From positions 359,291 to 423,290 of the forward strand of contig JAXGNG010000002.1 of the NCBI GenBank assembly GCA_040768125.1: DNA of 64,000 nt, given 5' to 3'. Made by a program: the position numbers and the translations under genes. The notes under the pieces were generated by a model, which saw nothing but the letters and a program-made list of their open reading frames with translations, searched no databases and was not told the DNA's origin. Below, one piece after another: positions 1 through 49,789 of this stretch. How positions within the stretch are numbered: position 1 is the first letter of the stretch; each line of letters starts with the position of its first letter. This DNA is from Spirochaetota bacterium. Lineage in GTDB: Bacteria; Spirochaetota; UBA4802; UBA5550.

Positions 1-753
1 GCGTACCGCATCATACAGGAGGACATTTCCCTCGCACGCCGGATCCAGGAAAACCTCCTGGCGTACGCCCTCGATGGAGGTTCGCCCTTCACCATCGATA
101 TCCATTTCTACCCGATGAGCGAAGTGGGGGGGGATCTCTACGATATCGTTGAACTGAGGCCGGGGGTGCTTCGCGTTTTTCTCGCCGACGCGACCGGACA
201 CGGCATACAGGCGGCGCTCGTCACGATGCTCGTGAAGAGCGAATACGGGAAATTCAAATACGATGATGTCCCTCCCTCGGAGATCATGAAGGCCATCAAC
301 AACGAATTCATCGGGCGCTACACGAACCTTCCCGTACTCTATACCTGCATTATCGCGGATATCGACATTCACGCGGGCCGGGTCCTCTACGCCTCGGCGG
401 GACATCCCGATCAGTACGTGCTGCATGATGGCGACGTCAGCGTCCTCTCGCGGACCGGCAAGATTATCGGTTTCATCAGGGGCCTTGAATATAAACTCGG
501 CGAGGCGCCGTTCGGACCACGGGACAAGCTCATCCTTTTCTCAGACGGGATTTACGAAGAGTTTGACATGGATCTCAAGGAGTACGGCGAGAAAAGGCTT
601 TTTGACCTTGTGAGGCGTCATTCACGGGAGCCCGTCGCGTCGATCACGAGGAATATCCTGGACGATGTCCGATCCTTCACCGGGAAAGAGCGGATCAATA
701 CGAGTGACGATGTGACCGTCATAGGGGTTGAGGTCAAGGCTGATCGGCAATGA
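1..753 (+). CDS. PP2C/SpoIIE-family serine phosphatase (RsbU-like), C-terminal portion; 5' end lies outside the window
   Basis: Frame 1 is open from nt 1 (AYRIIQEDISLARRIQENLL...). PP2C motifs are present: GGDLYD, FLADATGHG, FSDGIYE, and a C-terminal [10 protein letters not shown]. Confidence 0.8.
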   Translation, partial: AYRIIQEDISLARRIQENLLAYALDGGSPFTIDIHFYPMSEVGGDLYDIVELRPGVLRVFLADATGHGIQAALVTMLVKSEYGKFKYDDVPPSEIMKAINNEFIGRYTNLPVLYTCIIADIDIHAGRVLYASAGHPDQYVLHDGDVSVLSRTGKIIGFIRGLEYKLGEAPFGPRDKLILFSDGIYEEFDMDLKEYGEKRLFDLVRRHSREPVASITRNILDDVRSFTGKERINTSDDVTVIGVEVKADRQ

Positions 754-1600
754 CGCGCCCGTCGCTGCCGGCGCCGCCCGGAAGCTTTCTCGCATCCCTG
801 ATGAGGATGTGGTTTTTCCCGAAGAGCCTGACCCTCCCGGGTGAAAGGGGGTTCGGCGGCGCGTTTTTGAATGGCCTCATGAGGGGGGAGATAAAATCGC
901 GGTCGGCGAAAATTCTCTTCCCGATACGGTTCGCGGCGTAATTCCTTTCGCCATTGTCCAGAAGGAGAATGAACCGGGGTGGGACCGGTTCTTCCAGCGA
1001 TCTCGCGAGAGGGTCGCGTATGCCCACGACCTCTGATTTGATCCTTACGCGAAGAATGTCCGGCTCTTCGACGCCCAGGAGGGCGAAGGGGGGGTGGGGA
1101 ATTATTTCGATGGACGTGAAGGGGGCGATAAACCATGACCTGTTCCGCTCGAAGGTTATCCATCGGTGTTTCCTCAGCGCGAGTTCCTCAGGGTGGTCCG
1201 CGATCCCTTCGACAACCGTTGGCGCGTCCCTGTGGTCGAGGGAGGGAAATTCCTCGAAGGACGCGTTGCGGGAATCCGATATTTTACCCAGGATCCGCTG
1301 TACAAGATTGAAATCGAGGCCCTCCCTGGTGTACTGCTTCCTGTAGGATTCAAGAAGCGCCCTGAGCCTGAGGAGGTCTTCGCCTCCCCCGACCGTGTTG
1401 AACGCCGAGTAAATGGAGCAGAGAATGTCCAGCTGGCCGATGATATCGTCGTAGAGCGGCTCGAATTCCGCGTACTTGTGTTCAAGGGCTGTCAGGGATT
1501 TTTCCACGGCACTCTGGATCCGCTCCATTTTCTGGAGATTGTAATTCCAGAGTTCGCGATAATCCTGGAATGAAGGGTCGTCGTTTGTTTCCTGTCCCAT
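734..1600 (-). CDS. hypothetical protein with no recognisable domain; start uncertain (ORF extends to 1726, internal ATGs at 1600 and 1528)
   Basis: Long ORF with protein-like composition, convergent with and overlapping the phosphatase by 20 nt. The 1600–1840 interval looks like a divergent promoter region (AT-richer, TTGACG). Confidence 0.4.
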
Positions 1601-1839
1601 GCCCGCCGTCCAACCGTGTGGATGAAGGTAATGTACGCTACTCCATCCGTTTCTGCCCGTCAATAATTTTTGTCCCCGGCGCCAAATTACTTGACGTGGA
1701 AACTTTTCGTTCAACAATTGCATCAAAAAACGGGATGGGTGGGGGATTCGTGCGTTTCGGCGGCGCTGTTCCCACCGCCTGGTGTGCGGGTATGACGATC
1801 CCGCATCGAATGGGCCCCGTGGTGATGCGAGGTGCTCCT

Positions 1840-2604
1840 ATGATCGGCAAGAAGATACGCCTGCAGAGAATAATCAACAGAAACACGGGGAGGATGATCA
1901 TCGTCCCGATGGACCACGGTGTCACGGTGGGTCCCATTCCCGGTCTCATCGACATGGCCGATACCGTCAACAAGATCGCGAACGGAGGGGCGAACGCCAT
2001 CGTGATGCACAAGGGGATCGTGGAAACGGGACATCGGTCCAGCGGGAAGGACATAGGGCTCATCGTCCATCTTTCCGCGAGCACCTCCCTGGCTCCCGAC
2101 TCCAACGCGAAAACCCTCGTGTGCAGCGTTGACGAGGCGGTACGCCTCGGCGCCGACGCGGTGTCGATTCATGTTAACATCGGCGCGAACACCGAGGCGG
2201 AGATGCTCGGCATCATGGGCTACATTTCAAGAAGCTGCAGGGACTGGGGGATGCCTCTTCTCGCCATGATGTACACCAGGGGAGCTAAGATAAAAAACGA
2301 ATACGATGTGGCCGTGGTGAAGCACGCCGCCCGCGTGGGGGCGGAGCTGGGCGCCGATATCGTAAAGGTCAATTACACGGGATCGCCCGAGTCGTTCGAC
2401 GAGGTGGTGAGGGGGTGCCCCGTGCCGGTCGTGATAGCCGGCGGTGAGAAGATGGAAAGCGATGAGGAGATACTTGAAATGGTGAGGGGATCGGTCGAGG
2501 CCGGAGGCGCCGGGGTATCGATCGGCCGAAACGTGTTCCAGCACCCGAGCCCGGAGATAATATTGAAAAAAATCGCGGAGATCGTGCACGGCGGCGGTAA
2601 ATGA
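1840..2604 (+). CDS. 2-amino-3,7-dideoxy-D-threo-hept-6-ulosonate synthase (AroA', DhnA-type class I aldolase)
   Basis: Matches the archaeal ADH synthase along its length: [63 protein letters not shown], and the Schiff-base region [11 protein letters not shown]. The ORF's N-terminal extension from 1570 is rejected as promoter sequence. Confidence 0.8.
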
Positions 2605-3602
2605 AGGAAGTCTGGCTCCACCTGCCATCATGGAACAAGGGCCTCGTTACGGAGGCCCTCGAATCCGGGGTAAACGCGATCGTGACGACGGCCGACCTCG
2701 TGGAGCGGATTCGCGAACTTGGAAGGATCATGGTGATCGCCCCGGACGGCGGCGACCGCAACATTCCCGGCGACGTGGAGATCGTTGTCATAAAGGATAA
2801 AAAAGACGAGGAGAGGGCCGCGGCCTCCCTGGCCTCTCGCGCGGTGATTGTTCGCACCACGGACTGGGACATCATACCGATCGAGAATCTGATACCCCGG
2901 GGGGGCGAGCGGCTCTATACCTTCGTGAGGCATCTGGATGACGCGAGGCTCGCCGCCGCGATAATGGAGAAGGGCGTTGCGGGTGTCGTTATTGAAACCG
3001 GGGACCCCGCCGAGATAGGACGCGTGGCGTCCTACATCCGTGAGATGGACAGCGAGGCATGCGAAATGGCATCGTTCACGATCACGGGGATCAGGGGCAT
3101 CGGCATCGGCGACCGCGTATGCGTGGACACCTGCGGGAACCTCGGGCCCGGGGAAGGACTCATGGTGGGCAACAGCAACCGGGGGATGTTCCTCGTTCAT
3201 GCCGAGAATATTGAAAACCCCTACGTCGCTCCCCGTCCCTTCCGCATAAACGCCGGGGCGGTGCATTCCTACGTGAGGGTGCCCGGCGGCAGGACGGTGT
3301 ACCTCGGCGAGCTTCGCACGGGCGATCCCGTCCTCATCGTGGACAAGGACGGTAAAACCTACACGTCCTACGTGGGTCGATCGAAAATCGAAAAAAGGCC
3401 CATGCTCGTCGTGTACGCCACGGACGGCCAGCACGAGTACTCCACTGTCCTCCAGAACGCGGAAACCATTCGTCTTACCTCGCCTGACGGAAAGGCCCTG
3501 AGCGTCGCATCGCTCAGGGAGGGGGATGTCGTGCTTGGGTGCAGTGAATCCGGCGGGCGTCATTTCGGCATGGCCGTCGAGGAGACGATTACCGAGCAAT
3601 AA
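2601..3602 (+). CDS. 3-dehydroquinate synthase II (AroB', archaeal-type)
   Basis: Conserved blocks [46 protein letters not shown] and [12 protein letters not shown] 4-nt ATGA overlap with the upstream aroA' suggests translational coupling. Confidence 0.85.
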
Positions 3603-3635: not shown

Positions 3636-3663
3636 ATCCCTGAAAACGGGATCCCATTTTTTC
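3636..3663 (+). terminator. Rho-independent terminator candidate after aroB'
   Basis: ATCCC–TGAAAAC–GGGAT hairpin followed by CCCATTTTTTC. Confidence 0.5.
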
Positions 3664-3886: not shown

Positions 3887-3933
3887 AATGATGGATGCGG
3901 CATCAACAGGTTAACCGCAGCCGCGCCCCGGGC

Positions 3934-5253
3934 ATGTCGACATTACAGGAAGGGGTCTTGCCGTTGAGCGACGCAGTACTGCATTATAACGGGACCGACT
4001 ATCCCCTCGGCATCGTTGAAGGGACGGAGGGGGAGAAGGCGATCGATATCCGCAATCTCCACAGGGATACCGGGCTCATAACCCTTGATACCGGTTATCA
4101 GAACACAGGATCCTGCCTCTCGGCCATCACCTACGTCGACGGGGAAAAGGGAGTGCTCCGCTACCGCGGAATTCCGATCCAGGTGCTGGCGGAGAAGGCT
4201 TCCTTCACCGAGACGGCCTTTCTGCTCATCCACGGCCACCTGCCGTCGGAGGAGGAGCAGAAGCTCTTTTCGCGGCGCCTCACCGAGAATTCCATGATCC
4301 ACGAGAAGATGCTCCGTTTTTTCGACGGTTTCCCCGTAACGGCGCATCCCATGGCCATGTTGAGCACCATGGTCAATGCGCTCTCGGTGTACTATCCACT
4401 GTTCTTCACGGACAAATTCGAGAGCGACACCTTTGAATTGATGGCGGTCCGGCTTATCTCGAAGATACGCACTATCGCCGCCTATTCATACAAGCATTCA
4501 ATCGGCGAGCCCTTTATCTATCCGAGGGACGATCTGCGTTATTGCGCGAATTTCCTTTACATGATGTTTCACAGCCCCGCGAAACCGTACGATGTCGACC
4601 CCTTCATCCACCAGCTGCTGAACATACTGCTCATTCTCCACGCCGATCACGAGCAGAACTGCAGCACCTCCACGGTGAGGCTCGTGGGAAGCAGCATGGC
4701 AAACCTCTATTCATCGATATGCGCCGGAATCTGCGCCCTCTGGGGCCCGCTCCATGGAGGCGCCAACCAGAGCGTGATCGAAATGCTCGAGAGCATCCAG
4801 AAGGAAGGTCTCACGGTGCGGCAGTGCATTGAAAAAGCGAAGAGCAGGGATTCCAACTTCAGGCTTTTCGGTTTCGGCCACCGCATTTACAAGAGTTACG
4901 ACCCCCGGGCGACATTGTTGAAGGAAAAATGCTGGGAGATGATAAGAATGTTCAACATTCACGAGCCCCTTATCGACATCGCCATGGAGCTGGAGCAGGC
5001 GGCCCTCCAGGACGACTACTTCATCGAGCGCCGTCTCTACCCGAATGTTGATTTCTACAGCGGGCTTCTCTACCGGATGATGGGCATCCCCACGGAAATG
5101 TTCACGGTGATGTTCGCCATCGGTCGGCTTCCCGGATGGATCGCCCAGTGGAAGGAGATGCATGACGATACGCCCCTTAAAATCGGACGACCCCGTCAGG
5201 TTTATATCGGAACGCATCTCGCTGATTACGTGCCGGTGGAGAAGCGGGGGTAG
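3934..5253 (+). CDS. gltA: citrate synthase (type II)
   Basis: Citrate synthase signature region GFGHRIYKSYDPRA, catalytic His context HGGANQ, and full-length similarity. The 3895 start is trimmed to MSTLQEG. Confidence 0.9.
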   Translation: MSTLQEGVLPLSDAVLHYNGTDYPLGIVEGTEGEKAIDIRNLHRDTGLITLDTGYQNTGSCLSAITYVDGEKGVLRYRGIPIQVLAEKASFTETAFLLIHGHLPSEEEQKLFSRRLTENSMIHEKMLRFFDGFPVTAHPMAMLSTMVNALSVYYPLFFTDKFESDTFELMAVRLISKIRTIAAYSYKHSIGEPFIYPRDDLRYCANFLYMMFHSPAKPYDVDPFIHQLLNILLILHADHEQNCSTSTVRLVGSSMANLYSSICAGICALWGPLHGGANQSVIEMLESIQKEGLTVRQCIEKAKSRDSNFRLFGFGHRIYKSYDPRATLLKEKCWEMIRMFNIHEPLIDIAMELEQAALQDDYFIERRLYPNVDFYSGLLYRMMGIPTEMFTVMFAIGRLPGWIAQWKEMHDDTPLKIGRPRQVYIGTHLADYVPVEKRG

Positions 5254-5417
5254 CGGTGCCGCCGAAGCGGCGCGGGGTCCCCGGCCGCGGCAAGCAGCGG
5301 ATACAGTGTCTGACCCGTGTGCCGATTTTTACAGCATGCGCGTGCATGCGTCATTGGACCGGCGCGGGGCGAGAGCATGATATACCAGATGAACACCAGT
5401 CGAAAAGGAGCCGATTG

Positions 5418-8400
5418 ATGTCCAAAAAAAAGATGACCAAATCCATGGACGGCAACATGGCAGCCGCCCATGTCGCCTATGCCTTTACCGAGGTCGCGAC
5501 GATTTACCCGATAACCCCCTCGTCGCCGATGCCGGAATACGTCGACGAATGGGCCGCCCATGGGCTGAAGAACATATTCGGCGAAAAGGTCAGGCTCGCG
5601 GAGATGCAGTCCGAAGCGGGGGCCGCGGCGTCGATGCACGGCGCGCTCCAGGCGGGGGCGCTGGCCACGACCTTCACGGCATCCCAGGGGCTCCTTCTCA
5701 TGATCCCCAACATGTATAAAATGTCGGGCGAGCTGCTTCCCGGCGTCATGCACGTGACCGCCCGGTCAATTTCCGCGCACGCCCTGTCGATTTTTGGTGA
5801 CCAGGCCGATATCTACGCCGTTCGCCAGACCGGTTTCGCCATCCTCGCCAGCGGTGGCGTCCAGGAGGTGATGGACCTCGGGAGCGTGGCGCACCTTGCC
5901 GCTATCAAATCGCGGGTTCCCTTCCTTCATTTTTTTGACGGTTTCAGGACCTCGCATGAAATCCAGAAAATCGAGGTGCTGGAGTATAAGGACCTGAAAA
6001 AGCTCGCGGATTGGACTTCGATCGAGGAGTTCAGGAAGCGAGCCCTGAACCCGATGGATCCCGTTACCAGGGGTACGGCGCAGAACCCCGATATCTATTT
6101 CCAGCTTCGGGAGGCGGCGAATCCCTATTACGAGGCGGTCCCGGACATCGTTGAAGGATACCTCAGGGACATGAGCGCGCTTACCGGAAGGGAATACCAT
6201 CCCTTCGTGTACTACGGCGCTCCCGACGCGGAGCATATCATCGTAGCCATGGGTTCGGTGACGGAAACCATACGTGAGACGATCGACCACATGATGGAGA
6301 AGGGAGACAAGGTGGGCCTCATGACCGTCCACCTCTACAGGCCCTTCTCGGCGAAGCATTTTTTCAAGATGCTTCCGAAGAGCGTCAGGCGCATCGCCGT
6401 CCTGGACCGGACCAAGGAGCCAGGGGCAACCGGCGAACCGCTCTACCTGGACGTGAGGGACATCTTCTACGGCCGCGAGAACATGCCCCTTATCGTGGGT
6501 GGGCGGTACGGTCTCAGTTCCAAGGACACAACCCCGGGCCAGATTATCGCGGTATTCGACAACTTGAGACAGCCGGAGCCGAAAAACGGTTTCACCATAG
6601 GCATCACGGATGACGTCACCTTTACGTCGCTTTCGGTGAAGGAAAACTTCAGCACCGCGCCGAAAGGCACCTTTGCCGCAAAGTTCTTCGGCATCGGTTC
6701 CGATGGAACCGTGGGGGCGAACAAGAATTCCCTGAAGATAATCGGCGACCACACCGACATGTACGCCCAGGCCTATTTCGCCTATGACGCCAAGAAGTCG
6801 GGAGGGGTCACGGTGTCGCACCTCCGCTTCGGCAAAAAGCCGATACGTTCGACTTACCTTGTTATCCGTCCCGATTTCGTGGCGTGCCATGTCCCCTCTT
6901 ACCTGGAGCAATATGACATGCTCAAAGGCCTTAAGAAGGGCGGGACATTTCTGCTGAACAGCATCTGGGACGCCGAGGAGACAAAGCGGCGACTCCCGGA
7001 CCATATCAAAAAGTACCTGGCCGAGAACGACATCAGTTTCTATATCATCAACGCAACGGAAATCGCCGAGGAGATAGGCCTGGGCACCCGAACCAACAGT
7101 ATCATGCAGGCGGCCTTTTTCAAGCTGGCGGACGTCATCCCCTACGATGAGGCCACGGGATACATGAAGGAAGCCGTGGACGCCACGTACGGGAAAAAGG
7201 GCGACGATATCATCAGGATGAATTACGCCGCGATCGAGAAGGGTGCCGAGGGCCTGGTCAGGGTCGAGGTCCCGGCGGAGTGGAAGGACATCGTGACGGA
7301 TGCCGACGCCGCGCGCGGCGAGGTCCCGGAATTCGTGCGCGAAATCGCGGACCCCATGAACCGCCTGGATGGAGACAGCCTTCCCGTGAGCGCATTTTCG
7401 GACATGCCCGACGGCACTTTCCCGCCCGGTACCACGGCCTACGAAAAGCGGGGTATCGCGGTCCATGTGCCGGAATGGCAGCCCGATGAATGCATCCAGT
7501 GCAACCAGTGCTCCTATGTCTGCCCCCACGCCGTTATCCGGCCCTTCCTCCTTGACGACGCCGAGGCGGCCGCAGTCCCGGAGGGGACCCGGCTTGTCGA
7601 CGCCAAGGGGAAGGGACTCGAGGGCTACAAGTTCAGGATACAGATAAGCCCCCTGGACTGCACCGGCTGCGGCAATTGCGAACAGACCTGTCCCGCGAAA
7701 CCGAAGGCCCTGATCATGAAAAATCTTGATGACCAGATGGCGGAAAGTGCCCGGTGGGCCCATTTCAGCCGCACTGTCACGTACAAGGACACCCTGGTAG
7801 CGAAAAGCACCGTGAAGGGGAGCCAGTTCGCCCGGCCCCTCTTCGAGTATTCAGGCGCCTGCGCCGGATGCGGGGAGACCCCCTACATCAAGCTCATCAC
7901 GCAGCTCTACGGTGACCGCATGATGATCGCAAACGCGACGGGATGTTCATCGATCTACGGCGGTTCCGCGCCAGGCACCCCGTACTGCGTCAATTCTGAA
8001 GGGCACGGTCCATCATGGGCGAGTTCCCTATTCGAGGACAGCGCCGAATACGGTTTCGGCATGAAGATTGGCGTCGAGCAGCTCAGGGACCGGGTCGAGG
8101 AATGCGCGCGGGAACTCATCAGGGGCGGCGCGTCCCCGGCCCTGAAAGAGGCGCTCAGCGAATGGATCGAAGGCCGGGACGACGCGGAGAAATCAAAAAA
8201 AGCTTCGACGAAACTCGTGCCTCTTCTTGAGTCGGAAAAAGACGATAACGCCCGTGAAATCCTCCGCCTGAGGGACTATCTCCCCAGGCGCTCGATCTGG
8301 ATTATCGGAGGTGACGGGTGGGCCTACGATATCGGCTACGGTGGCGTCGACCATGTAATTGCGTCGGGCGCCGATGTCAATCTCCTGGTCCTGGATACCG

Positions 8401-8945
8401 AGGTCTATTCGAACACCGGGGGACAGTCATCCAAGGCAACGCCCGTGGCCGCCGTCGCCAAGTTCGCCGCGGCGGGGAAAAGGATCAGGAAGAAGGACCT
8501 CGGCATGATGGCGATCACCTACGGGTATGTCTACGTGGCCCAGGTGGCCATGGGAGCCAGCCAGTCACAGTTCCTCAGGGTTGTCCAGGAGGCGGAGGCG
8601 TATCCAGGCCCCTCTCTCATCATCGCCTATTCGCCGTGCATCAACCATGGCCTCCGGGCCGGCATGGGCAAGAGCCAGCTTGAATCAAAGCTCGCGGTGG
8701 AATGCGGGTACTGGCACCTCTTCCGCTATAATCCCCTTCTCGAGAAAGAGGGGAAAAATCCATTCGTTCTTGACTCGAAGGAGCCTGACTGGAATAAATT
8801 CCGGGATTTCCTCATGGGGGAGGTGCGGTACACGTCCCTCAAGAAGGAATTCCCCGACGTTGCCGATGAGCTCTTCAAGGCCGCGGAGGAGAACGCCAGG
8901 TGGCGATATAATTCCTACCGAAGGCTCGCGAGCCTCGAATACTGA
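5418..8945 (+). CDS. por: pyruvate:ferredoxin (flavodoxin) oxidoreductase, single-polypeptide PFOR
   Basis: About 1175 aa. It has two ferredoxin CxxCxxCxxxCP motifs (CIQCNQCSYVCP, CTGCGNCEQTCP) and the TPP-binding GGDGWAYDIG block. An AAAGGAG ribosome-binding site precedes the ATG at 5418. Confidence 0.9.
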   Translation: MSKKKMTKSMDGNMAAAHVAYAFTEVATIYPITPSSPMPEYVDEWAAHGLKNIFGEKVRLAEMQSEAGAAASMHGALQAGALATTFTASQGLLLMIPNMYKMSGELLPGVMHVTARSISAHALSIFGDQADIYAVRQTGFAILASGGVQEVMDLGSVAHLAAIKSRVPFLHFFDGFRTSHEIQKIEVLEYKDLKKLADWTSIEEFRKRALNPMDPVTRGTAQNPDIYFQLREAANPYYEAVPDIVEGYLRDMSALTGREYHPFVYYGAPDAEHIIVAMGSVTETIRETIDHMMEKGDKVGLMTVHLYRPFSAKHFFKMLPKSVRRIAVLDRTKEPGATGEPLYLDVRDIFYGRENMPLIVGGRYGLSSKDTTPGQIIAVFDNLRQPEPKNGFTIGITDDVTFTSLSVKENFSTAPKGTFAAKFFGIGSDGTVGANKNSLKIIGDHTDMYAQAYFAYDAKKSGGVTVSHLRFGKKPIRSTYLVIRPDFVACHVPSYLEQYDMLKGLKKGGTFLLNSIWDAEETKRRLPDHIKKYLAENDISFYIINATEIAEEIGLGTRTNSIMQAAFFKLADVIPYDEATGYMKEAVDATYGKKGDDIIRMNYAAIEKGAEGLVRVEVPAEWKDIVTDADAARGEVPEFVREIADPMNRLDGDSLPVSAFSDMPDGTFPPGTTAYEKRGIAVHVPEWQPDECIQCNQCSYVCPHAVIRPFLLDDAEAAAVPEGTRLVDAKGKGLEGYKFRIQISPLDCTGCGNCEQTCPAKPKALIMKNLDDQMAESARWAHFSRTVTYKDTLVAKSTVKGSQFARPLFEYSGACAGCGETPYIKLITQLYGDRMMIANATGCSSIYGGSAPGTPYCVNSEGHGPSWASSLFEDSAEYGFGMKIGVEQLRDRVEECARELIRGGASPALKEALSEWIEGRDDAEKSKKASTKLVPLLESEKDDNAREILRLRDYLPRRSIWIIGGDGWAYDIGYGGVDHVIASGADVNLLVLDTEVYSNTGGQSSKATPVAAVAKFAAAGKRIRKKDLGMMAITYGYVYVAQVAMGASQSQFLRVVQEAEAYPGPSLIIAYSPCINHGLRAGMGKSQLESKLAVECGYWHLFRYNPLLEKEGKNPFVLDSKEPDWNKFRDFLMGEVRYTSLKKEFPDVADELFKAAEENARWRYNSYRRLASLEY

Positions 8946-8975
8946 CGCCGCAGCGGTGGCGGCCTCACGCGGGAG

Positions 8976-10091
8976 TTGAATGAGATGAAAGACACGGTGG
9001 TCTGGATAGATTTCGATACCATGGAGCGATTCATGACCGACGTGTTCATCGCGGCGGGCGTTCCCGTGGAAGACGCGAAAATATGCGCCGACGTGCTCAT
9101 CACTTCCGACAAGCGGGGGATCGATTCCCACGGGATCAACAGGCTGAAACCGATCTACATCGACCGGATCCGGGACGGGATCCTTTCGCCGGTCACGAAG
9201 ATCGATATCGTCAGGGAGGGACCCACCACGGCGGTTCTGGACGGCAATAACGGCATGGGTCACGTGATAGGGAAACGCGCCATGGCGATGGCCATTGACA
9301 AGGCGGACAAGTACGGCATGGGCATGGTGGCCGTGCGCAATTCATCCCACTACGGAATATGCGGGTACTACGCGATCATGGCAGCCGAAGCGGAGATGAT
9401 CGGCGTTACCGGGACCAACGCGCGTCCGAGCATCGCCCCGACCTTCGGCGTGGAGAACATGCTCGGCACCAACCCCCTTGTTTTCGGCATGCCCACGGAC
9501 GAGGGTTTCCCCTTCGTGATAGATTGCGCGACCTCGGTATCGCAGAGGGGCAAGATCGAGGTCTATGCCCGCGAAGGCAAGGCACTTCCGGCGGGATGGG
9601 TGGTCGACGAGCGCGGCGAATCGACGACGGATGCGGGCCTGGCCCTGGAAAAACTCATTGACGGTACCGCGGCCCTCGCCCCCCTGGGCGGCATTGGCGA
9701 GGAGGGGGGAGGGTACAAGGGATACGGCTACGCGACGGTGGTGGAGATATTGAGCGCGGCGCTCCAGGCGGGCAACTTCCTCAAAATGCTTTCGGGCTTC
9801 GAAAACGGGAAAAAAATCCCCTACCGGCTCGGCCATTTCTTCATGGCCATAAACATTTCCCATTTTATCGAGCCATCCGAATTTAAAAAAACGGCGGGAG
9901 ACATTCTCAGGGAGCTCAGGTCCTCGAAAAAAATGCCCGGTCGGGAGAGGATCTATACGGCGGGGGAGAAGGAATACCTCGCGTGGGTTGATCGAAAGGA
10001 GAGGGGTGTACCGGTCAACATGAGCCTCAGGAAGGATATCATCGCCCTTCAGGATGAGTTTAATCTGAAAGGGTACCCTTTCCCCTTTTAA
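8976..10091 (+). CDS. Ldh_2-family malate/L-lactate (or sulfolactate) dehydrogenase
   Basis: Ldh_2 motifs GIDSHGINRL, VAVRNSSHYG and GTNPLVFGMP; 31 nt downstream of PFOR on the same strand. Confidence 0.75.
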   Translation: MNEMKDTVVWIDFDTMERFMTDVFIAAGVPVEDAKICADVLITSDKRGIDSHGINRLKPIYIDRIRDGILSPVTKIDIVREGPTTAVLDGNNGMGHVIGKRAMAMAIDKADKYGMGMVAVRNSSHYGICGYYAIMAAEAEMIGVTGTNARPSIAPTFGVENMLGTNPLVFGMPTDEGFPFVIDCATSVSQRGKIEVYAREGKALPAGWVVDERGESTTDAGLALEKLIDGTAALAPLGGIGEEGGGYKGYGYATVVEILSAALQAGNFLKMLSGFENGKKIPYRLGHFFMAINISHFIEPSEFKKTAGDILRELRSSKKMPGRERIYTAGEKEYLAWVDRKERGVPVNMSLRKDIIALQDEFNLKGYPFPF

Positions 10092-10872: not shown

Positions 10873-11971
10873 AATTCAAGGATGAAGTGCAACATTAGGA
10901 ATCAGTAATAATAGTAGTCTCATGGGGGCTCTTCCCATAGGATTGAGTTTGACAGAACATAATCCGAGGAGGAACCACCCATGAGACTGTATTCACACAT
11001 AACGAAAGACGAGCGCCATGTCATCCAAAAAATGCTCTATTCTAGCGTATCAAAGATTGAATTGAGCAAATATCTGGGACGCGATCGATCTACCATTTAT
11101 CGAGAGCATACACGAAACAGGACAAAAGGCTATCATTATCAAGATGCACATGAACGTTATTGCGCCCGAAGGTATAGGCGTCGGAGAAAGCTCGATAGCA
11201 ATGGTGTGTTACGGCTTCTTGTATGCTCTTTGCTTATGGAGAGAAATTCCCCTGAAGTCACATCATATTATTTGAGGAGCCAGTTTCCCGGAGATCCTGA
11301 GATGCATATATCAACTGAAGCCATCTATCAATGGGTGTATGCGCAGCATGGGGAGTACCACAATATGTTATTGCTTAATTATCTGTTCACAAAGAGGAAT
11401 AAACGTCAGAAACGGTCCCTGATATATCAAAAAAGAGAACTTATTGCTGGGAAACGGAACATTTGTGAACGTCCGATAGAGGCTGATGAAAAGACTGTCG
11501 CCGGCCATTTGGAGGGTGATCTCATTACCAGTGCAGGGAATGATGCATATTTACTTACCCTGGTTGACCGCAAACTGGCGCATATCTGGGGTGTTCCAGT
11601 CCATTCCAAGGATGCGGAAATCGTATCCCGAGCTGTCGTGGAGGCACTGAACGATTTACCTGCCGGATTCGTTAAAACAATTACATTCGATAATGGTAGT
11701 GAATTCAGCTTATTTCAGAATATCGAAAAAGCATTGGAATGCAAGGTCTTCTTTGCCGATCCATATTGTTCATGGCAACGTGGGTTAAATGAGCATATCA
11801 ATGGACGCATCCGCCAGTATATCCCTAAGAAAAAAAGTTTTGCCCACTTGACCGATGATGATTTTGAGGATATCCTCTGTGCAATAAATTCGAGGCCCCG
11901 AAAATCCCGTGGGTGGCGTACCCCGAGATCGCTGTTGAATGAACTGATTTGTTGCACTTGAATGTTGAATT
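10873..11971 (+). mobile_element. IS30-family insertion sequence (~1.1 kb)
   Basis: Imperfect terminal inverted repeats, AATTCAA-N5-AAGTGCAACA at 10873–10894 and the reverse complement at 11950–11971. Single IS30 transposase ORF. Local GC falls to ~40% against ~60% in the flanks. Confidence 0.7.
10981..11961 (+). CDS. IS30-family DDE transposase
   Basis: IS30 hallmarks: HLEGDLI, TFDNGSEF and ADPYCSWQRGLNEHINGRIRQYIPKK. Confidence 0.9.
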   Translation: MRLYSHITKDERHVIQKMLYSSVSKIELSKYLGRDRSTIYREHTRNRTKGYHYQDAHERYCARRYRRRRKLDSNGVLRLLVCSLLMERNSPEVTSYYLRSQFPGDPEMHISTEAIYQWVYAQHGEYHNMLLLNYLFTKRNKRQKRSLIYQKRELIAGKRNICERPIEADEKTVAGHLEGDLITSAGNDAYLLTLVDRKLAHIWGVPVHSKDAEIVSRAVVEALNDLPAGFVKTITFDNGSEFSLFQNIEKALECKVFFADPYCSWQRGLNEHINGRIRQYIPKKKSFAHLTDDDFEDILCAINSRPRKSRGWRTPRSLLNELICCT

Positions 11972-20168: not shown

Positions 20169-21374
20169 TTATGCGCCGGAAATTGACTGGGCCAGGAGGT
20201 TGACCGGGTGGAGGACCTTGTATTCGGTGTGACGGGAAATCTGGAGATTGCATGTTTCGCAATCGGTGACCACAAATTCGGGATTGGCCTGTTCGATCAG
20301 CTGAACGAGCTGCGACGCGATGTCGGTGCTTATGGCGTGGTACTCTTTCTTGAATCCATAGGTTCCCGCGATGCCGCAGCATTCCGAATGAAGGATGACA
20401 AGATCGAGGCCCGGTATCCTCTTCAGCACATTGATGGTGTAGATCACGCCGCCCTGGCGCTCCAGGTGGCACGGCGAATGGTACGCCACGCGGAGAGGGA
20501 CGGGCTTCAGATCCGGAAGGTTGCCCGCCTCGAACTGGTCGAAGAGGAACTTGGTGATGTATTCAACGTCGTTGTAAATGGCGCCGTTGTCGAGATCGAG
20601 AAAGTGCGAGTACTCGTGCTTCAGGGCGTAGGAACAGCTCGATGATGTCGACACGATTTTTCCCCCCGTGGCGGCTTTACGTACGGAGAGGTTCTTAATG
20701 TTATGGAGGGCGTTTGCCTTCGCCTTTTCAATGTACCCGTTCGCGATGAGGGGAACGCCGCAGCATTTCTCCCTTGTGATCTCGACCCCGATGTTCATGG
20801 CGTTGAGAACCCTTACCAGGTCCATCCCGAGTTCGTGGTCGTTGTAGTTGACGAAGCATCCATGGAAATAGGTCACCCGTTTTTCATAGCGCGCCTGGTC
20901 GCCCCTGAGCCTTCTGAATTTTCTCGCGAAGGTCCCCGATGCATAGGACGGGAAGACGCTCTGTGAGGGGATTTTCATCACGAGGTCCATGAGGAGCTTG
21001 ACCGGTGGAAAACGCAGGAAAAAATTAACGATGGAGCTGAACCGCGTTGCGATGGAGCCCACGAGGTCGGTTCGGCTCATGAAGAAATCGCGGGGCCTGA
21101 AGAATCCGCGTTTTACGTAATTCCATTTTGCCATCTGGATGATGCTGGCGATCTGCACGCCCGAGGGGCAGACCGTCTCGCAGCGCTTGCAGTTCGAGCA
21201 GTATTTCAGCGACGCGTCGACCAGGAGCGGGTCCTTGATGCGCAGGCGCTCGGTGTCGGGACCCGATTGTTTCGGGCCGGGGAAGAGGTGGGTCACGCGC
21301 GCCACGGGGCAGTAGATGGTGCACACCGTGCATTTGATGCACTGGTCGAAGCTGATGTTCTCGAGTCGTATCAT
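20169..21374 (-). CDS. glpC: anaerobic glycerol-3-phosphate dehydrogenase subunit C
   Basis: Two Cys clusters (CIKCTVCTIYCP, CSNCKRCETVCP) plus CCG-type Cys-rich domains. Confidence 0.85.
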   Translation of the reverse strand: MIRLENISFDQCIKCTVCTIYCPVARVTHLFPGPKQSGPDTERLRIKDPLLVDASLKYCSNCKRCETVCPSGVQIASIIQMAKWNYVKRGFFRPRDFFMSRTDLVGSIATRFSSIVNFFLRFPPVKLLMDLVMKIPSQSVFPSYASGTFARKFRRLRGDQARYEKRVTYFHGCFVNYNDHELGMDLVRVLNAMNIGVEITREKCCGVPLIANGYIEKAKANALHNIKNLSVRKAATGGKIVSTSSSCSYALKHEYSHFLDLDNGAIYNDVEYITKFLFDQFEAGNLPDLKPVPLRVAYHSPCHLERQGGVIYTINVLKRIPGLDLVILHSECCGIAGTYGFKKEYHAISTDIASQLVQLIEQANPEFVVTDCETCNLQISRHTEYKVLHPVNLLAQSISGA

Positions 21375-22672
21375 TTTTGCCGCATCGCCCCTTTCCCGGT
21401 AATCATGAGGGCCGCGTGATATCCCGTGGCGATGGCGACCCCCCCGCCGGAGGCCTCCCTGATGGGGTTGTAGTCGCCGAGAATGGAACCCGCGCAGTAG
21501 AGATTGTTGACCATGTTCCCCTTCGCGTCGATGGCCTTCAGGTTGTCGTCGGTCTGGACGCCGTATTCGAGGAAGGGATGACTCGAAGGTTCAAAAAAAC
21601 GCGCGGCATACCAGTCATTCCTCTTCTGAGGGGCGTTGACGGACAGATTCAGTACCGGTTCCTCGATCCTGTTGAATTCGCTCCTCAGGCCGCTGCTGAA
21701 GAAGCTCCCCGTGGCAAGCACAAAGGAGGACGAATGGTGGCGCGTGGTGCCGTAACTTTTGGTGTGAACATGATCAACCGAGCCGTTCACGATCTCGCCG
21801 CCCGTTACCGTGTCTCCGATGGAGAATTCACCCCCAAGGGCCGCGAATCGTCTTTTCAGTGCGTCATCGATCCTCATCCCCATGATCGACGGGGGCAGAG
21901 AGGGGACCTCGTAGATGATGCGTCCCGTCAACTCCTCGAGTCGTGCGTGGATTGCCCCGAAGTTGCGTATGCCGAGAAAAGAGGGGAGACAGACGATACC
22001 GGCCTTCCCCGCTACGGCGTTGATTTCGCCGGCGATGCGTGGAAGATATTTTTCCGTCTCGAAGATGCGCGCAAGGTCAATGGACCTGAATTCGTGGGGA
22101 TTTCTTTCGGGCCGGGCCAGGCGGGGTATCCTTATGCGCCCCGTGATGATTTCGGTGTCGGCGAAAAGGGGCTGGCGCTTGAGCTGCTCCACCGCGATTT
22201 CCGCGTAGTAGTCGCGGTATCCCTCGAAGTTGAGTATCGCGATCGGGATTTTGTTCTCCCACGCGGAGCGGATGCGCTCGTTGAACACGCTCGCCTGGGA
22301 GAGGTACGTGGGCTTCAGGGTGCCGATTCCGGTAACGTGAAAGTGGTTTTCGCGGCCGTTGCGGTGAAGGGCGATATCGCCCACGGCGGCCTCGGAGATG
22401 AAGAACTCGATTGCCTCGGCAACGACGGCGGTCCCTATTTTTGCGTAGGGGTGATGGTGATTGACCGCAGCGATCCCCTCGATGTATTCCAGGGGGGTCG
22501 CGACCGGGTTCTTTTCCGGGGTGTACCCGTAGAGGTCTATCGACCCCGATGAGAAATGAAGGGAATTGGCCCCTGAAGAAATGATGGCCGTGCGAAGGCC
22601 CTCGCGCCTGCATTTGATGCCGCAGGTGAGGCCCGCAAGGCCGCCGCCGATGATTAGACAGTCGTACGCCAT
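21371..22672 (-). CDS. glpB: anaerobic glycerol-3-phosphate dehydrogenase subunit B
   Basis: MAYDCLIIGGGLAGL FAD-binding N-terminus; sits between glpA and glpC. The ORF's upstream extension to 22798 is rejected. Confidence 0.8.
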   Translation of the reverse strand: MAYDCLIIGGGLAGLTCGIKCRREGLRTAIISSGANSLHFSSGSIDLYGYTPEKNPVATPLEYIEGIAAVNHHHPYAKIGTAVVAEAIEFFISEAAVGDIALHRNGRENHFHVTGIGTLKPTYLSQASVFNERIRSAWENKIPIAILNFEGYRDYYAEIAVEQLKRQPLFADTEIITGRIRIPRLARPERNPHEFRSIDLARIFETEKYLPRIAGEINAVAGKAGIVCLPSFLGIRNFGAIHARLEELTGRIIYEVPSLPPSIMGMRIDDALKRRFAALGGEFSIGDTVTGGEIVNGSVDHVHTKSYGTTRHHSSSFVLATGSFFSSGLRSEFNRIEEPVLNLSVNAPQKRNDWYAARFFEPSSHPFLEYGVQTDDNLKAIDAKGNMVNNLYCAGSILGDYNPIREASGGGVAIATGYHAALMITGKGAMRQK

Positions 22673-22692
22673 GATTGAGTTCGTTACTCTCC

Positions 22693-24306
22693 CTAATCTT
22701 TCAGGTTGCCGAGCCCGAAAAGTCCCTCGTATATCCAGTAGGTGAATTCCGACTCCCTGAGCGAATCGCCCCAGAGGACCGGTTTCACGCCCTTCCACCT
22801 TTCTTCGAGGAAGTCCCTGAGCAGCTTCGCGGATTCAACCGGTGTCGCGGATCCGTACTCCTGGAACAGGCCTGCGGAACGGTAGGCGCAGAGTTCTCCC
22901 TGGCATGGTCCCATGCCGATCCGCGTTCTCCGTCGAAGGTCAACCAGGTCCCTGACGTTGAGTTTTCTCAGGGCGTACTCCACCTCGCCTTCGGTGACCA
23001 TCTCGCATTCGCATATCAGGCGGTAATTTTTCCGGTCCCTTTTCAGGAACCCGTGAACGCGGTGCCCGTGTCGGTAGAGCGTGGAACCCACGACGGAGTT
23101 GGGGATGCCCGTGAAGGCCCTGACGGTTTTACCGCGTGACAGCTTTCGTTCGGAACCGGGCAGTGGAGTGCGATGGGTGGCGCAGCCCTTTTTCACGCCG
23201 AGCTTTTTCACCGCCATGTCGACGGTCATTTCCGCCATGAGGCGGTAGGTCATGAGCTTGCCGCCGGCTATGGTGATGAAGCCGTCAAGCACGTCGCGTT
23301 CCGCGTGGTCGATAAGGACGATGCCACGGCTGATGTCCCGTCCGCTGGTTTCGCCCGATACCGCGACCAGCGGACGGACACCGGCGTAGGCCCTGAGCGC
23401 CCTTGCCCGGGAAACGTTCGGGATCAGTTTCTCGCCGTCGCCAAGAAGCACATCGATCTCGTCGTCGTCCACGGTAAGATACTCGATGCAGTTGTAATCT
23501 ATCTGCCTCGACGTGGTGCCGATGATCGAAACCGTATCCCCCGGGACAATGATATCGCCGTCCGCGGGAGGCCGGCAACGGTTGATGACGATGTTGTTGA
23601 CGCGGTAGTCGATGATAAGCATGGATCCCTTCGAGGGAAACATTTTCAGCTCGATGCCCGCGGTTTCGCAAATGTGCTGCCCCCATACCCCCGAAGCGTT
23701 GATGACGATTGAACCATGGATTTCGAAGATATCGCCCCCGGCGGTCTGGCAACGGACGCCCAGGGCGCGTCCTCCCCCGGTCAGCACCTCGGTTACCTTT
23801 GTATGGTTGAAGACCCTGCCGCCGCGTTCCTCGGCGTCGAGAATATTCGACGACGTCAGTCGAAACGGGTCGACGATGCCGTCCGGTACATATATCGCGG
23901 ACAGTATTTTCTCGTTGAGATTGGGTTCGAGGCGAAGGGCCTCGTTGATGCTGACGTCCTCGGTTTTAATGCCAGCGATCCTGCATCCCGCGATGAGGTC
24001 GTGGTGGTACATCGGGTCGTCGTCGGGGAGGGTGACGAATAGCCCCCCCGTGTCCTCAATGCAGTGCCGGGCGATGTGTTTCAGTATCCTGTTCTCGGAG
24101 ATGCATTCCCTTGCGGATTCAAGGTCTTTCACGGCATAGCGCGCTCCGGAATGGAGGAGGCCGTGATTCCGCCCCGTGGCGCCATAGGCGATATCGTCCT
24201 TTTCGACGAGCGTGGCAGCTATGCCCCTCAGGGAGAGATCGCGTATAATGCCGGCTCCCGTAATACCCCCGCCGACAACGATGACTTCTGTCTCGATATT
24301 TTTCAT
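22693..24306 (-). CDS. glpA: anaerobic glycerol-3-phosphate dehydrogenase subunit A
   Basis: VIVVGGGITGAGIIRD...ATGRNHGLLHSGARYAV matches the GlpA FAD-binding region; C-terminal BFD-like Cys motif. Confidence 0.85.
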   Translation of the reverse strand: MKNIETEVIVVGGGITGAGIIRDLSLRGIAATLVEKDDIAYGATGRNHGLLHSGARYAVKDLESARECISENRILKHIARHCIEDTGGLFVTLPDDDPMYHHDLIAGCRIAGIKTEDVSINEALRLEPNLNEKILSAIYVPDGIVDPFRLTSSNILDAEERGGRVFNHTKVTEVLTGGGRALGVRCQTAGGDIFEIHGSIVINASGVWGQHICETAGIELKMFPSKGSMLIIDYRVNNIVINRCRPPADGDIIVPGDTVSIIGTTSRQIDYNCIEYLTVDDDEIDVLLGDGEKLIPNVSRARALRAYAGVRPLVAVSGETSGRDISRGIVLIDHAERDVLDGFITIAGGKLMTYRLMAEMTVDMAVKKLGVKKGCATHRTPLPGSERKLSRGKTVRAFTGIPNSVVGSTLYRHGHRVHGFLKRDRKNYRLICECEMVTEGEVEYALRKLNVRDLVDLRRRTRIGMGPCQGELCAYRSAGLFQEYGSATPVESAKLLRDFLEERWKGVKPVLWGDSLRESEFTYWIYEGLFGLGNLKD

Positions 24307-24466: not shown

Positions 24467-25453
24467 TTAATGGATTTCCGGTCCGTCGGCGTTTCCCCTG
24501 TCGCTTCCCGTTACTTTTCTGTTGTCAATCAACACTTCGAGCTCTTTGCCGCTGAACCGGTACCGCTGCGCGCAAAAGGCGCAGGTGACCTCCGCCCCGT
24601 TGTCGCGTTCCCGCATCTCTTTCAGTTCGTCCATGCTGACGTGGGCCAGGATGTCGAGTATCAGCCTCCTGCTGCAGCGGCATGCGGACTTCAGGGGTTG
24701 GGACCCAAGGATGGTCAGGGGTTCGCCGCCGAAAAGGGCCGCGAGGAACGCTTCCATGGGTTCGCCGTCTTTCAGTTTTTCGCCAAGGGAACGTTCCATC
24801 GTGGTGATGGCATTCTCCACCCGTGCCACCGACGTTTCAGGCGTATCCGGGAGGGTCTGGATGAGGACGCCCCCGGAGGAAGTGATGCCGCCGTCGTTCC
24901 CCAGGGTGAGGCCGATGATGAGGGCCGAGGGGACCTGCTCGGATATCGTCAGGTACCGTGCGACATCCGCGGCAACGTCGCCCGCCTCGAGGTGGATGAC
25001 GCCGGAGTAGGGCTCTCCATGGCCTGTTTCCCTTCGTACCGTAAGGAGGCCAGCGCCGATGCTTTTAGAAAAGCTGATGGTGTCCAGTTCACCGGTTTCA
25101 TCGGGACGGGGATTTCCGGCATAGGCCCGGATGTTCCCTCGGGCATCGGCCTGGGCATGCAGCTCCCTGATGGGACCGCTTCCCTCTATCCGGAGGACCA
25201 GGCTCTGGTCCGAAAGAGGTTTCAGGGTGGCGCTCAGAAGGGCCGTAGCGGTGATCGTCCTTCCCATCGCGACCGTTGCGTTTGGCGTGGTGCCGTGAAG
25301 GGAGGTGATTATCCGCACGGTTTCGAGCGTGGTGGCGGTGTAGGCCCTCAGGCCCAGGCCCTCGCAGAGGTAGCGCGTCAGGGTGTCGGTCCCTCTCAGG
25401 TCGTTACCCGGGGCAGAAGTCGCGGCATGGGAATGGCCGGTTGACATGGTCAT
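24467..25453 (-). CDS. hslO: redox-regulated chaperone Hsp33
   Basis: C-terminal zinc centre C-x-C ... C-x-x-C (CRCSRR...CAFCAQRY) and an Hsp33 N-domain. The start overlaps the upstream gene's stop by 4 nt. Confidence 0.85.
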   Translation of the reverse strand: MTMSTGHSHAATSAPGNDLRGTDTLTRYLCEGLGLRAYTATTLETVRIITSLHGTTPNATVAMGRTITATALLSATLKPLSDQSLVLRIEGSGPIRELHAQADARGNIRAYAGNPRPDETGELDTISFSKSIGAGLLTVRRETGHGEPYSGVIHLEAGDVAADVARYLTISEQVPSALIIGLTLGNDGGITSSGGVLIQTLPDTPETSVARVENAITTMERSLGEKLKDGEPMEAFLAALFGGEPLTILGSQPLKSACRCSRRLILDILAHVSMDELKEMRERDNGAEVTCAFCAQRYRFSGKELEVLIDNRKVTGSDRGNADGPEIH

Positions 25454-26613
25454 TTTTCACCGATCCTGATACAACCCTTGCCAGGCTGGGAGCAGGAGTA
25501 TCCGCAATTGATATTTTCATCGGAGCAGCAAGAATCGAGGAAGATATCCCATCGTGCGCGCTCCCTTGAATACAAGAGAAAGGCCCGGACAACGCATTCA
25601 TAGACGACACGACGTGTCACGAGCCCGGGTTTTCCATCCTTAACGGATTCCCCGGGTTCATCTATTGAGAAAAGGACCCGCCCCGTCAGGGGTATCTTCG
25701 TGCGGTATGCCTCTGGCTCTCCCCTGGAGATGATCTCCAGCTTCTCGATGTCGACGTTCCCCTTCTTGAGTCCGTATTCCTCCGCCAGGGATTTCTTCAG
25801 CAGTTGAAGGGCTTCCTCGTCATTGACTTCCGGCAAGGAGCCGTCGGTTGAGAGGTTCCTGCACATCGTCGGGATAAAGCACTCAACCCGGTCCTTTCCC
25901 CTGAAGACGCAGGCATCGCCCGCGTAGCGCCATTCCCCGCCCGAATTCTCAAGGGTAGAGCGCATGAGGCATTCATAGGTGGAAAGGGTATTGGTGAGAT
26001 CGTCATTACGGGAAATGACGGCCCGCGAGGTCACCAGGGTGCGGGCCGTACATCGTTCCCTGGACGCTGTTTTTTTCAACACCACGACCTCCTTCACTAC
26101 CCACCCTGGGCGGCGTTCAACGAGGCCCTGGCGGACCAGGGAGAGAGCCGTTTTGTCGTCAAGGGCGGGTAGTTTCTTTTTCGGCGCCCCGACTTCCTTC
26201 GATACCGTTTTTTCAATGCGATCGAAGATCCATTCTGTTTCAAGGCGGTAATAATGGGCATCCCATATGTCACGAAGGGGAAGACCGCATTCGTTGATGA
26301 TGATATCGACCGTTACGCGATGGACCTGCGAGGGGACCGCTATTCCGCCCTTCATTACGCTGCCGTTGCGCACACCACCGGCGTACGTGACTCTGCGTTC
26401 CGTCGTCCCATCGGGCTGTTGATAGACTGTGCGGAAATCGGCGAGAACCCGCTTTCCGGTCACGGCGCCAATCTTGCCGGGAGGGGGCGAGGGCCCGACA
26501 CCAGCGGCGGGCGGCGCGGCGGTGATCATGCCTCCGCCGGTGATGAAAGCGGAGAGGAGGACGGTAATCCAGATGAGGGCTCGTGACGTGTGATGTCCCA
26601 TTGCTTTCTCCAT
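25450..26613 (-). CDS. hypothetical membrane-anchored or secreted protein with a Cys-rich C-terminal tail
   Basis: N-terminal hydrophobic segment ALIWITVLLSAFITGGG and 13+ Cys, including the C-terminal SCCSDENINCGYSCSQPGKGC. No known domain recognised. Confidence 0.5.
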   Translation of the reverse strand: MEKAMGHHTSRALIWITVLLSAFITGGGMITAAPPAAGVGPSPPPGKIGAVTGKRVLADFRTVYQQPDGTTERRVTYAGGVRNGSVMKGGIAVPSQVHRVTVDIIINECGLPLRDIWDAHYYRLETEWIFDRIEKTVSKEVGAPKKKLPALDDKTALSLVRQGLVERRPGWVVKEVVVLKKTASRERCTARTLVTSRAVISRNDDLTNTLSTYECLMRSTLENSGGEWRYAGDACVFRGKDRVECFIPTMCRNLSTDGSLPEVNDEEALQLLKKSLAEEYGLKKGNVDIEKLEIISRGEPEAYRTKIPLTGRVLFSIDEPGESVKDGKPGLVTRRVVYECVVRAFLLYSRERARWDIFLDSCCSDENINCGYSCSQPGKGCIRIGEK

Positions 26614-30078: not shown

Positions 30079-30230
30079 GATCGTTTGACATGAAAGAGGC
30101 CGTTTCACGGCCATTTTTTCGGCGCGCGACGACGCGGTGCCGATTCGCCCACAAGGATGAAATCCCCGCAGGGAGCCCTTGTCGCGACGGTATCAATGAT
30201 TGGAAATCAAAGGGGCTTTTGTCAATACTT

Positions 30231-41830: not shown

Positions 41831-41871
41831 AGATGCCCGCCGGTAAAAATGGAATAGAAAAAAGCAGCTAT

Positions 41872-45769: not shown

Positions 45770-45803
45770 GGAGTATGCAGAATTATCACACAAGGAGCAT
45801 GTC

Positions 45804-49748: not shown

Positions 49749-49789
49749 CAGAGGTCCGGTTATAATACCGTTTTCCGTGAGAGGACTAT

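Follow-up and report, generated by a model that had tools for sequence, protein, structure and literature searches.

A two-gene aroA'-aroB' operon that probably makes 3-dehydroquinate without DAHP in an uncultured Spirochaetota bacterium

The gene pair and the assignment of its products

A stretch of 64,000 nucleotides from the genome of an uncultured Spirochaetota bacterium (GenBank assembly GCA_040768125.1, contig JAXGNG010000002.1, positions 359,291 to 423,290 of the forward strand; hereafter, the window) carries two overlapping genes at 1840-3602, aroA' and aroB', which encode a predicted 2-amino-3,7-dideoxy-D-threo-hept-6-ulosonate (ADH) synthase and a predicted 3-dehydroquinate (DHQ) synthase II. 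We consider it highly probable that they constitute a two-gene operon making 3-dehydroquinate without 3-deoxy-D-arabino-heptulosonate 7-phosphate (DAHP). An initial annotation had proposed such a DAHP-independent pair for entry into the shikimate pathway in a bacterium, and this core reading is supported by the scores against curated equivalog models, the grouping of AroA' with MJ0400 of Methanocaldococcus jannaschii, and the bacterial neighborhood of the genes. Both open reading frames (ORFs) are intact and lie exactly where that annotation had placed them, with the stop codon of aroA' and the start codon of aroB' sharing the 4 nt ATGA.

We place the start of aroA' at 1840 because a start codon occupies the aligned position in 27 of the 28 spirochaete loci compared here, a ribosome-binding site (RBS), GAGGTG, lies 5 nt upstream (1829-1834), and an independent gene call on a Logan contig also gave a protein of 254 aa. 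The same RBS is kept in most of the closer spirochaete orthologues, and other purine-rich sites stand in its place in the more distant loci. Longer forms of AroA' beginning at 1570 or 1734 were rejected, as the added N-terminal part lacks conservation, the closer loci share the start and RBS at 1840, and the profile alignment begins at residue 1 of the 254-aa form. An ORF antisense to aroB' (2628-3599, minus strand, 323 aa) was taken as the usual shadow ORF of a high-GC gene.

The assignment of AroA' was based on curated models, solved structures, and diagnostic residues. The equivalog model TIGR01949 matches residues 2-251 of 254 with 361.2 bits against a cut-off of 299.45 (E=3.3e-108), NF005556 is matched with 404.8 bits against a cut-off of 241 (E=1.6e-121), and the match to Pfam DeoC is full-length (E=1.8e-70). 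Among solved structures, the best match was MJ0400 (PDB 2qjg; E=8.3e-94), followed by the class I fructose 1,6-bisphosphate (FBP) aldolase (FBA) of Thermoproteus tenax (3.9e-40) and LsrF of Escherichia coli (8.4e-32); the corresponding identities are 56% (over 250 aa), 36%, and 31%. The aldolase catalytic residues of MJ0400 are common to both proteins, with D25, Y145, and K176 of AroA' corresponding to Asp33, Tyr153, and Lys184 in a gap-free alignment, and all three are invariant in 72 members of the ADH synthase clade. In MJ0400, Asp33 is the proton acceptor and Lys184 the Schiff-base residue, according to the account in PMC4162585 that cites Morar 2007. The equivalent of the latter, K176, falls within one of the peptide motifs that the initial annotation had quoted. 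These three positions are also common to FBP aldolase, so they are necessary for the assignment and do not discriminate between the families. More specifically, AroA' carries 19 of the 19 columns that are invariant in the ADH synthase clade yet different in both FBA and LsrF. Furthermore, a neighbor-joining tree was built from 72 AroA' proteins of related loci, to which MJ0400, T. tenax FBA, and LsrF, but not GriI, were added. In this tree, AroA' belongs to a monophyletic spirochaete group inside the MJ0400 clade, and a long branch leads to FBA and LsrF. The initial annotation had named a grouping with DhnA aldolases, combined with a full canonical DAHP synthase/aroB pair in the genome, as the result that would speak against it; what we found, in the tree and in the diagnostic columns alike, is that AroA' sits with MJ0400 and not with FBA or LsrF. 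On this sequence evidence, we assign AroA' as a predicted ADH synthase, a class I (Schiff-base) aldolase/transaldolase (EC 2.2.1.10).

AroB' aligns over its entire length (residues 1-333) with positions 1-330 of 330 in the equivalog model NF002627, scoring 438 bits against a cut-off of 392 (E=1.8e-131), and residues 2-333 match Pfam PF01959 (DHQS) with 395 bits (E=2.5e-118). Other subfamily models of DHQ synthase II align to it only from approximately residue 60 onwards. At 48 positions, AroB' has the residue that is found in at least 97% of 80 bacterial and archaeal homologues. Its near-invariant residues include R172, C174, D176, and T177 (within GDRVCVDTC), E202, R212-R215, N217-G219, H222, and Y224 (all within FLVHAEN...AVHSY), and K262, E264, and R266. 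In the copy of PDB that was searched, no solved structure was related by sequence to DHQ synthase II (best E = 0.066, spurious). We assign AroB' as a predicted 3-dehydroquinate synthase II (EC 1.4.1.24). Thus, the full-length matches claimed for both proteins hold at the level of curated cut-offs, and the three quoted peptide motifs all occur in the translations, within the most conserved blocks of both families.

The two enzyme families, whose curated models both window proteins match above cut-off, are those of MJ0400 (ADH synthase) and MJ1249 (DHQ synthase II) of M. jannaschii, whose characterization is credited to White 2004 and Morar 2007 where they are cited in PMC4162585. The spirochaete pair is a straightforward orthologue of the M. 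jannaschii pair, from which it differs in its bacterial host and in the short, 333-aa form of AroB'.

Host lineage, conservation, and history of the pair

To place the pair among its relatives, we used a one-genome-per-species scan, which rests on shared peptide words and is not exhaustive. It returned 111 relatives of AroB', and the 27 best of these (60-98% identity) are all from metagenome-assembled genomes (MAGs) of Spirochaetota, Spirochaetes, or Leptospirales. A further spirochaete MAG (L079, 72% identity) stands lower in the table of relatives, which gives the 28 spirochaete loci considered here. The next tier, at approximately 45-53% identity, comprises Desulfobacterota, Persephonella, and Methanomicrobiales; other archaea come after these. 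In the neighbor-joining trees of AroA' and of AroB', the 28 spirochaete sequences form one monophyletic group, and their nearest neighbors outside the spirochaetes are, in both trees, Desulfobacterota, Persephonella, and Deferrimicrobiaceae bacteria together with Methanomicrobiales.

The bacteria in this neighboring group (Desulfobacterota, represented by Desulfobacterales and Syntrophobacter, Persephonella, and Deferrimicrobiaceae) resemble the spirochaetes in having adjacent aroA' and aroB' genes, and their proteins are 62-70% (AroA') and 45-53% (AroB') identical to those of the window. In contrast, they belong to other phyla, and many of them have intergenic gaps of 25-480 nt where the spirochaetes have the ATGA overlap. 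We also take it that the pair heads an aromatic and tryptophan operon in Desulfovibrio vulgaris. Overall, aroA' lies directly 5' of aroB' in 72 of 80 related loci, in bacteria as well as archaea.

Across the 28 spirochaete loci, the gene order is FlgN-FlgK-FlgL-FliW-CsrA-YhhN-(giant kinase/GAF/SpoIIE protein)-(orphan, minus strand)-aroA'-aroB'-(citrate synthase)-PFOR-Ldh_2, where PFOR is pyruvate:ferredoxin oxidoreductase. The flagellar FlgN, FlgK, FlgL, FliW, and CsrA genes thus lie just upstream of the pair, and approximately 15 neighboring genes are syntenic with it in this clade. The window itself encodes a bacterial-type asd (aspartate-semialdehyde dehydrogenase), UvrC, a protein like the IIA component of the phosphotransferase system (PTS), a bacterial PheST, and FapA. 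The claim of a bacterial host is well founded in the light of the 27 best relatives, all of them Spirochaetota MAGs, the bacterial-type asd, UvrC, and PTS IIA, and the flagellar synteny.

The pair is under strong purifying selection. Compared with three relatives, the ratio of nonsynonymous to synonymous substitution rates (dN/dS) is 0.04-0.06 for aroA' and 0.06-0.14 for aroB', values that are approximate since dS is saturated. The GC content at third codon positions (GC3) of the pair is 0.78, equal to the value for housekeeping genes such as pheS and PFOR. A recent horizontal transfer is ruled out by this native GC3 and by the clade-wide synteny. Instead, the synteny in 28 spirochaete loci, the purifying selection, and the native codon usage point to an old acquisition, and the pair has long belonged to the genome of this lineage, where it is inherited vertically and held under constraint.

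The surroundings of the pair in archaea are of another kind. There, it usually stands with aroD, aroE, aroK, aroA, and aroC, and sometimes with asd, whereas the spirochaete pair is alone, between the flagellar block and genes of central carbon metabolism. Downstream of the pair, the archaeal loci carry genes for type I dehydroquinase, shikimate dehydrogenase, GHMP-type shikimate kinase, EPSP synthase, and chorismate synthase, with chorismate mutase/prephenate dehydrogenase and prephenate dehydratase nearby. Since the archaeal pair heads these runs of aroD, aroE, aroK, aroA, and aroC, the family as a whole is tied to the supply of dehydroquinate. None of these five genes was found in the 21-kb spirochaete loci examined.

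The initial annotation had also drawn attention to asd, a substrate-supplying gene of the proposed route, in the same window. The gene is real, as both models listed in Table 1 are passed; what did not hold is that its presence is notable. Almost all bacteria need asd for lysine, diaminopimelate, threonine, and methionine. A distance of 47 kb separates it from aroB', it belongs to a different transcription unit, and its presence adds nothing to the reading of the pair because of this distance and the near-universal need for it in bacteria. Linkage of asd to the pair was confined to three archaeal loci (L072, L074, and L081, from Hodarchaeota, Wukongarchaeum, and Conexivisphaera), where asd lies directly upstream of aroA'-aroB' and the pair is followed by aroD, aroE, aroK (GHMP type), aroA, and aroC; asd as a linked partner of the pair in the window was therefore rejected. 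The arrangement in these three loci is an operon-level link between the supply of aspartate semialdehyde and the pathway, and it has no counterpart in the spirochaete window.

Transcription unit and neighboring genes

The gene pair is separated from the divergent gene at 734-1600 by a spacer of 239 nt. When 15 spirochaete spacers were compared, the block GTCAATAATTT ... CAAATTACTTGAC ... AAnAATTG was invariant; the spacers were otherwise unalignable, with only this promoter block and the RBS kept. A consensus scan found the promoter-like site 1691-1718 independently of the conserved block (Table 1).

Table 1. Coordinates in the window of the aroA'-aroB' genes, of the sites around them, and of asd
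Feature	Position	Strand	Remarks
Conserved divergent promoter block	1658-1718	+	Consensus scan and alignment of 15 spirochaete spacers
CGTCAA	1658-1663	Reads as minus-strand -35 box TTGACG	For the divergent gene 734-1600
-35 box TTGACG	1691-1696	+	Promoter-like site serving aroA'
-10 box AACAAT	1713-1718	+	16-nt spacer from the -35 box
Predicted 5' leader of aroA'	1725-1839	+	About 115 nt; start inferred from the -10 box
aroA' (predicted ADH synthase)	1840-2604	+	254 aa, intact ORF
aroB' (predicted 3-dehydroquinate synthase II, short form)	2601-3602	+	333 aa, intact ORF
Terminator-like hairpin ATCCC-TGAAAAC-GGGAT, then CCCATTTTTT	3636-3662	+	Pattern match only, consensus scan
asd, aspartate-semialdehyde dehydrogenase	50723-51736	+	NF011456, 480 bits (cut-off 223); TIGR01296, 446 bits (cut-off 324)

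The CAAATTACTTGAC block was also considered as a specific operator or regulon motif, an idea that we rejected because it matches the window at chance frequency (11 found versus 9 expected). Since similar contexts occur at chance frequency ahead of other genes in the window, the block is better seen as the general -35 context of back-to-back housekeeping promoters. A regulatory leader upstream of aroA', whether riboswitch, T-box, or attenuator, was likewise discarded: the leader had no Rfam match at the gathering threshold or at E<=1, it is predicted to fold no more stably than shuffled sequence (z = -0.10), and neither its sequence nor its length is conserved among the 15 spirochaete loci.

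At the other end of the pair, the terminator-like hairpin begins 34 nt beyond the aroB' stop codon. The genes for citrate synthase, PFOR, and Ldh_2 were rejected as parts of the aro unit, given the 293-nt gap with this hairpin between them and the pair, and, in the case of citrate synthase, its absence from many syntenic loci. These observations suggest that aroA'-aroB' is its own transcription unit, separate from the citrate synthase gene at 3895. Most simply, the pair is a self-contained, translationally coupled bicistronic operon with a sigma-70-type promoter.

Several neighboring genes of the window are worth recording. The divergent gene at 734-1600 (minus strand) encodes an orphan protein of 288 aa that has no match in Pfam or among PDB profiles; its N-terminal half looks helical and its C-terminal half contains conserved W/F/G motifs. 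Orthologues lie divergently beside aroA' in 24 of the 28 spirochaete loci and in 0 of 52 other loci. As approximately 15 genes are syntenic in the clade anyway, this adjacency carries little information. The orphan was set aside as a regulator or as a partner enzyme supplying DKFP (6-deoxy-5-ketofructose 1-phosphate), having no domain or PDB match and being confined to the spirochaete clade. Beyond it, the window opens (1-753, plus strand) with the SpoIIE (PP2C phosphatase) end of a protein that in relatives is a giant of approximately 1,735 aa, combining Ser/Thr kinase, AAA_16 ATPase, TPR repeats, GAF, and SpoIIE (e.g., L079:2836-8043). On the other side of the aro pair, 3895-10091 (plus strand) encodes citrate synthase, a single-polypeptide PFOR, and a malate/sulfolactate-type dehydrogenase of the Ldh_2 family; synteny with the pair extends across the clade for PFOR and Ldh_2, and citrate synthase is present in some loci only.

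Further along, an IS30-like transposase (HTH_38 and rve domains) at 10981-11961 (plus strand) has a GC content of 0.437 and a GC3 of 0.431 versus 0.571 GC for the window. It had no counterpart in any fetched locus, including the syntenic spirochaete ones, and is probably a recent insertion. Three GlpABC-like genes (anaerobic glycerol-3-phosphate dehydrogenase) occupy 20169-24306 (minus strand), with the domains DAO and BFD [2Fe-2S], FAD_binding_2, and CCG and 4Fe-4S, respectively. At 45260-47741 (plus strand), a MarR-family regulator immediately precedes a tungsten-type aldehyde:ferredoxin oxidoreductase (AFOR_N, AFOR_C), which scores well below the NCBIfam equivalog cut-off. The PTS-IIA/PtsN-like ORF at 41012-42055 (minus strand), which has a zinc-ribbon tail, overlaps a tRNA-Pro(GGG) at 41871-41947 (minus strand); since the family matches begin at approximately residue 79, translation probably starts downstream of the tRNA. 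Finally, no Pfam match was obtained for the ORFs at 28213-30114 (minus strand, 633 aa) and 25450-26613 (minus strand, 387 aa), nor for three ORFs of 132-167 aa at 49245-50678, upstream of asd.

The proposed route, its alternatives, and its meaning

By orthology with the archaeal enzymes, AroA' would transfer a fragment onto L-aspartate semialdehyde to give ADH. The ketose phosphate condensed with L-aspartate semialdehyde in this first step would be DKFP. AroB' would then oxidatively deaminate ADH with NAD+ and cyclize it to 3-dehydroquinate, which would pass into an ordinary shikimate pathway encoded elsewhere in the genome. The pair would be transcribed from its own sigma-70-type promoter and translationally coupled, having presumably entered the ancestor of the spirochaete clade long ago and descended vertically as a housekeeping unit. 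This reaction scheme is credited to White 2004, White & Xu 2006, and Porat 2006 where they are cited in PMC4162585 and PMC11151856. Orthologous and genetically validated cases are OE1472F/OE1475F of Halobacterium salinarum and aroA' of Methanococcus maripaludis, whose mutants are described as requiring aromatic amino acids (Gulko 2014, PMC4162585; Porat 2006 cited therein). These mutants are the best functional evidence for the family.

Some considerations weigh against this scheme for the spirochaete. The substrates, and with them the use of NAD+, are assumed from M. jannaschii. In archaea, the first substrate is itself debated, as Gulko et al. leave FBP possible instead of DKFP (PMC4162585), and many archaea that bear the pair have no detectable DKFP synthase (PMC9012536). 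Among the ORFs of at least approximately 100 aa in the 64-kb window, we found no other aromatic-pathway genes, no methylglyoxal synthase, and no DKFP-type aldolase. Nor did the 21-kb spirochaete loci yield a source of DKFP. A canonical DAHP synthase and AroB were likewise not found among the scanned ORFs (down to approximately 100 aa) of this window only, which leaves room for a co-existing canonical route in the rest of the genome. Moreover, the pair lies outside any aromatic amino acid operon in all 28 spirochaete loci. It is also important to consider that the AroA' and AroB' trees are neighbor-joining trees without bootstrap support.

These considerations bear on three other explanations. 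It is unlikely, in our judgment, that the enzymes are as described and the route is nonetheless auxiliary, with DAHP synthase and AroB also encoded and the pair acting as a back-up or condition-specific source of dehydroquinate. The stand-alone position of the pair in all 28 spirochaete loci would suit such a role, and our view of the genome is confined to the 64-kb window, where the failure to find the canonical genes counts against an auxiliary role, though as a small sample. The strong purifying selection and the clade-wide retention of the pair also count against it. To our knowledge, organisms with aroA' and aroB' are usually without the canonical pair of DAHP synthase and AroB.

A different question is whether dehydroquinate is made from DKFP at all. 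AroA' might instead use FBP, or dihydroxyacetone phosphate (DHAP), and perhaps serve also as the class I FBP aldolase of the cell, which we regard as rather improbable. The haloarchaeal orthologue OE1472F has FBP aldolase activity, crystals of MJ0400 bind fructose 1,6-bisphosphate (F-1,6-P) and DHAP at Lys184, and Gulko et al. keep FBP and aspartate semialdehyde as possible precursors (all PMC4162585); nor was a gene for forming DKFP found in the window. On the contrary, MJ0400 had no detectable aldolase activity (PMC4162585), and AroA' resembles it more closely (56% identity) than it does T. tenax FBA (36%), from which it differs at the 19 clade-specific positions. AroA' does match the equivalog model of archaeal-type class I FBP aldolase, NF040816, at 3.2e-59, but with 200.6 bits it falls short of the cut-off of 430, a score that is compatible with FBP cleavage as a side activity. 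Still another chemistry is known from Streptomyces, where GriI/GriH (BagB/BagC, FevI/FevH), a homologous DhnA-type aldolase and an enzyme like DHQ synthase II, encoded in the same gene order, use aspartate semialdehyde; a pair of this type would combine aspartate semialdehyde with DHAP into 3-amino-4-hydroxybenzoate, destined for a secondary metabolite. Both proteins do match the corresponding models significantly (BagB/FevI, 9.5e-72; BagC/FevH, 1.7e-41), and the two systems are homologous, with identical gene order. However, the scores (NF041223, 241.3 versus a cut-off of 500; NF041224, 142.3 versus 750) remain far below the thresholds, whereas the models of the dehydroquinate route are passed. 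Furthermore, the Streptomyces genes stand in secondary-metabolite clusters, unlike the pair of the window, which has no biosynthetic-cluster context, is flanked by flagellar, citrate synthase, and PFOR genes, and shows housekeeping-like conservation across the whole clade. We consider it extremely improbable that the spirochaete pair is of this type.

The preferred reading thus remains an aroA'-aroB' operon that forms 3-dehydroquinate independently of DAHP; that it provides the main aromatic amino acid route of the organism is something we infer from the presence of the genes. A bolder version, in which an entire clade of environmental Spirochaetota has no other way into the shikimate pathway than this pair, derived from a single ancient transfer and fed by a source of DKFP or of another ketose phosphate that is unlike any known DKFP synthase, is a tentative proposal that we think could be correct, with the balance leaning against it.

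The enzyme pair is known and already machine-annotated, and it brings no new chemistry, gene family, architecture, or regulation. In GenBank and IMG, proteins that cluster with AroB' at 90% identity carry the name "3-dehydroquinate synthase II", those that cluster with AroA' are called "class I fructose-bisphosphate aldolase family protein", and the generic GenBank name of the aldolase hides the pathway. In the library of papers searched, we found none that discusses aroA'-aroB' in Spirochaetota, and the pair is not discussed in the main text of Price 2018 (PMC5764234) or of GapMind (PMC7311316). With its 28 loci, the spirochaete clade modestly extends the known range of hosts for a route that is usually described as archaeal. 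By itself, this locus does not make it any easier to find out where DKFP comes from. The finding matters mainly for metabolic reconstruction, since these spirochaetes would be mistaken for aromatic amino acid auxotrophs by tools whose search is limited to DAHP synthase and AroB. If the pair is indeed their sole route, the clade would offer a bacterial setting in which the source of the first substrate could be traced by comparative genomics.

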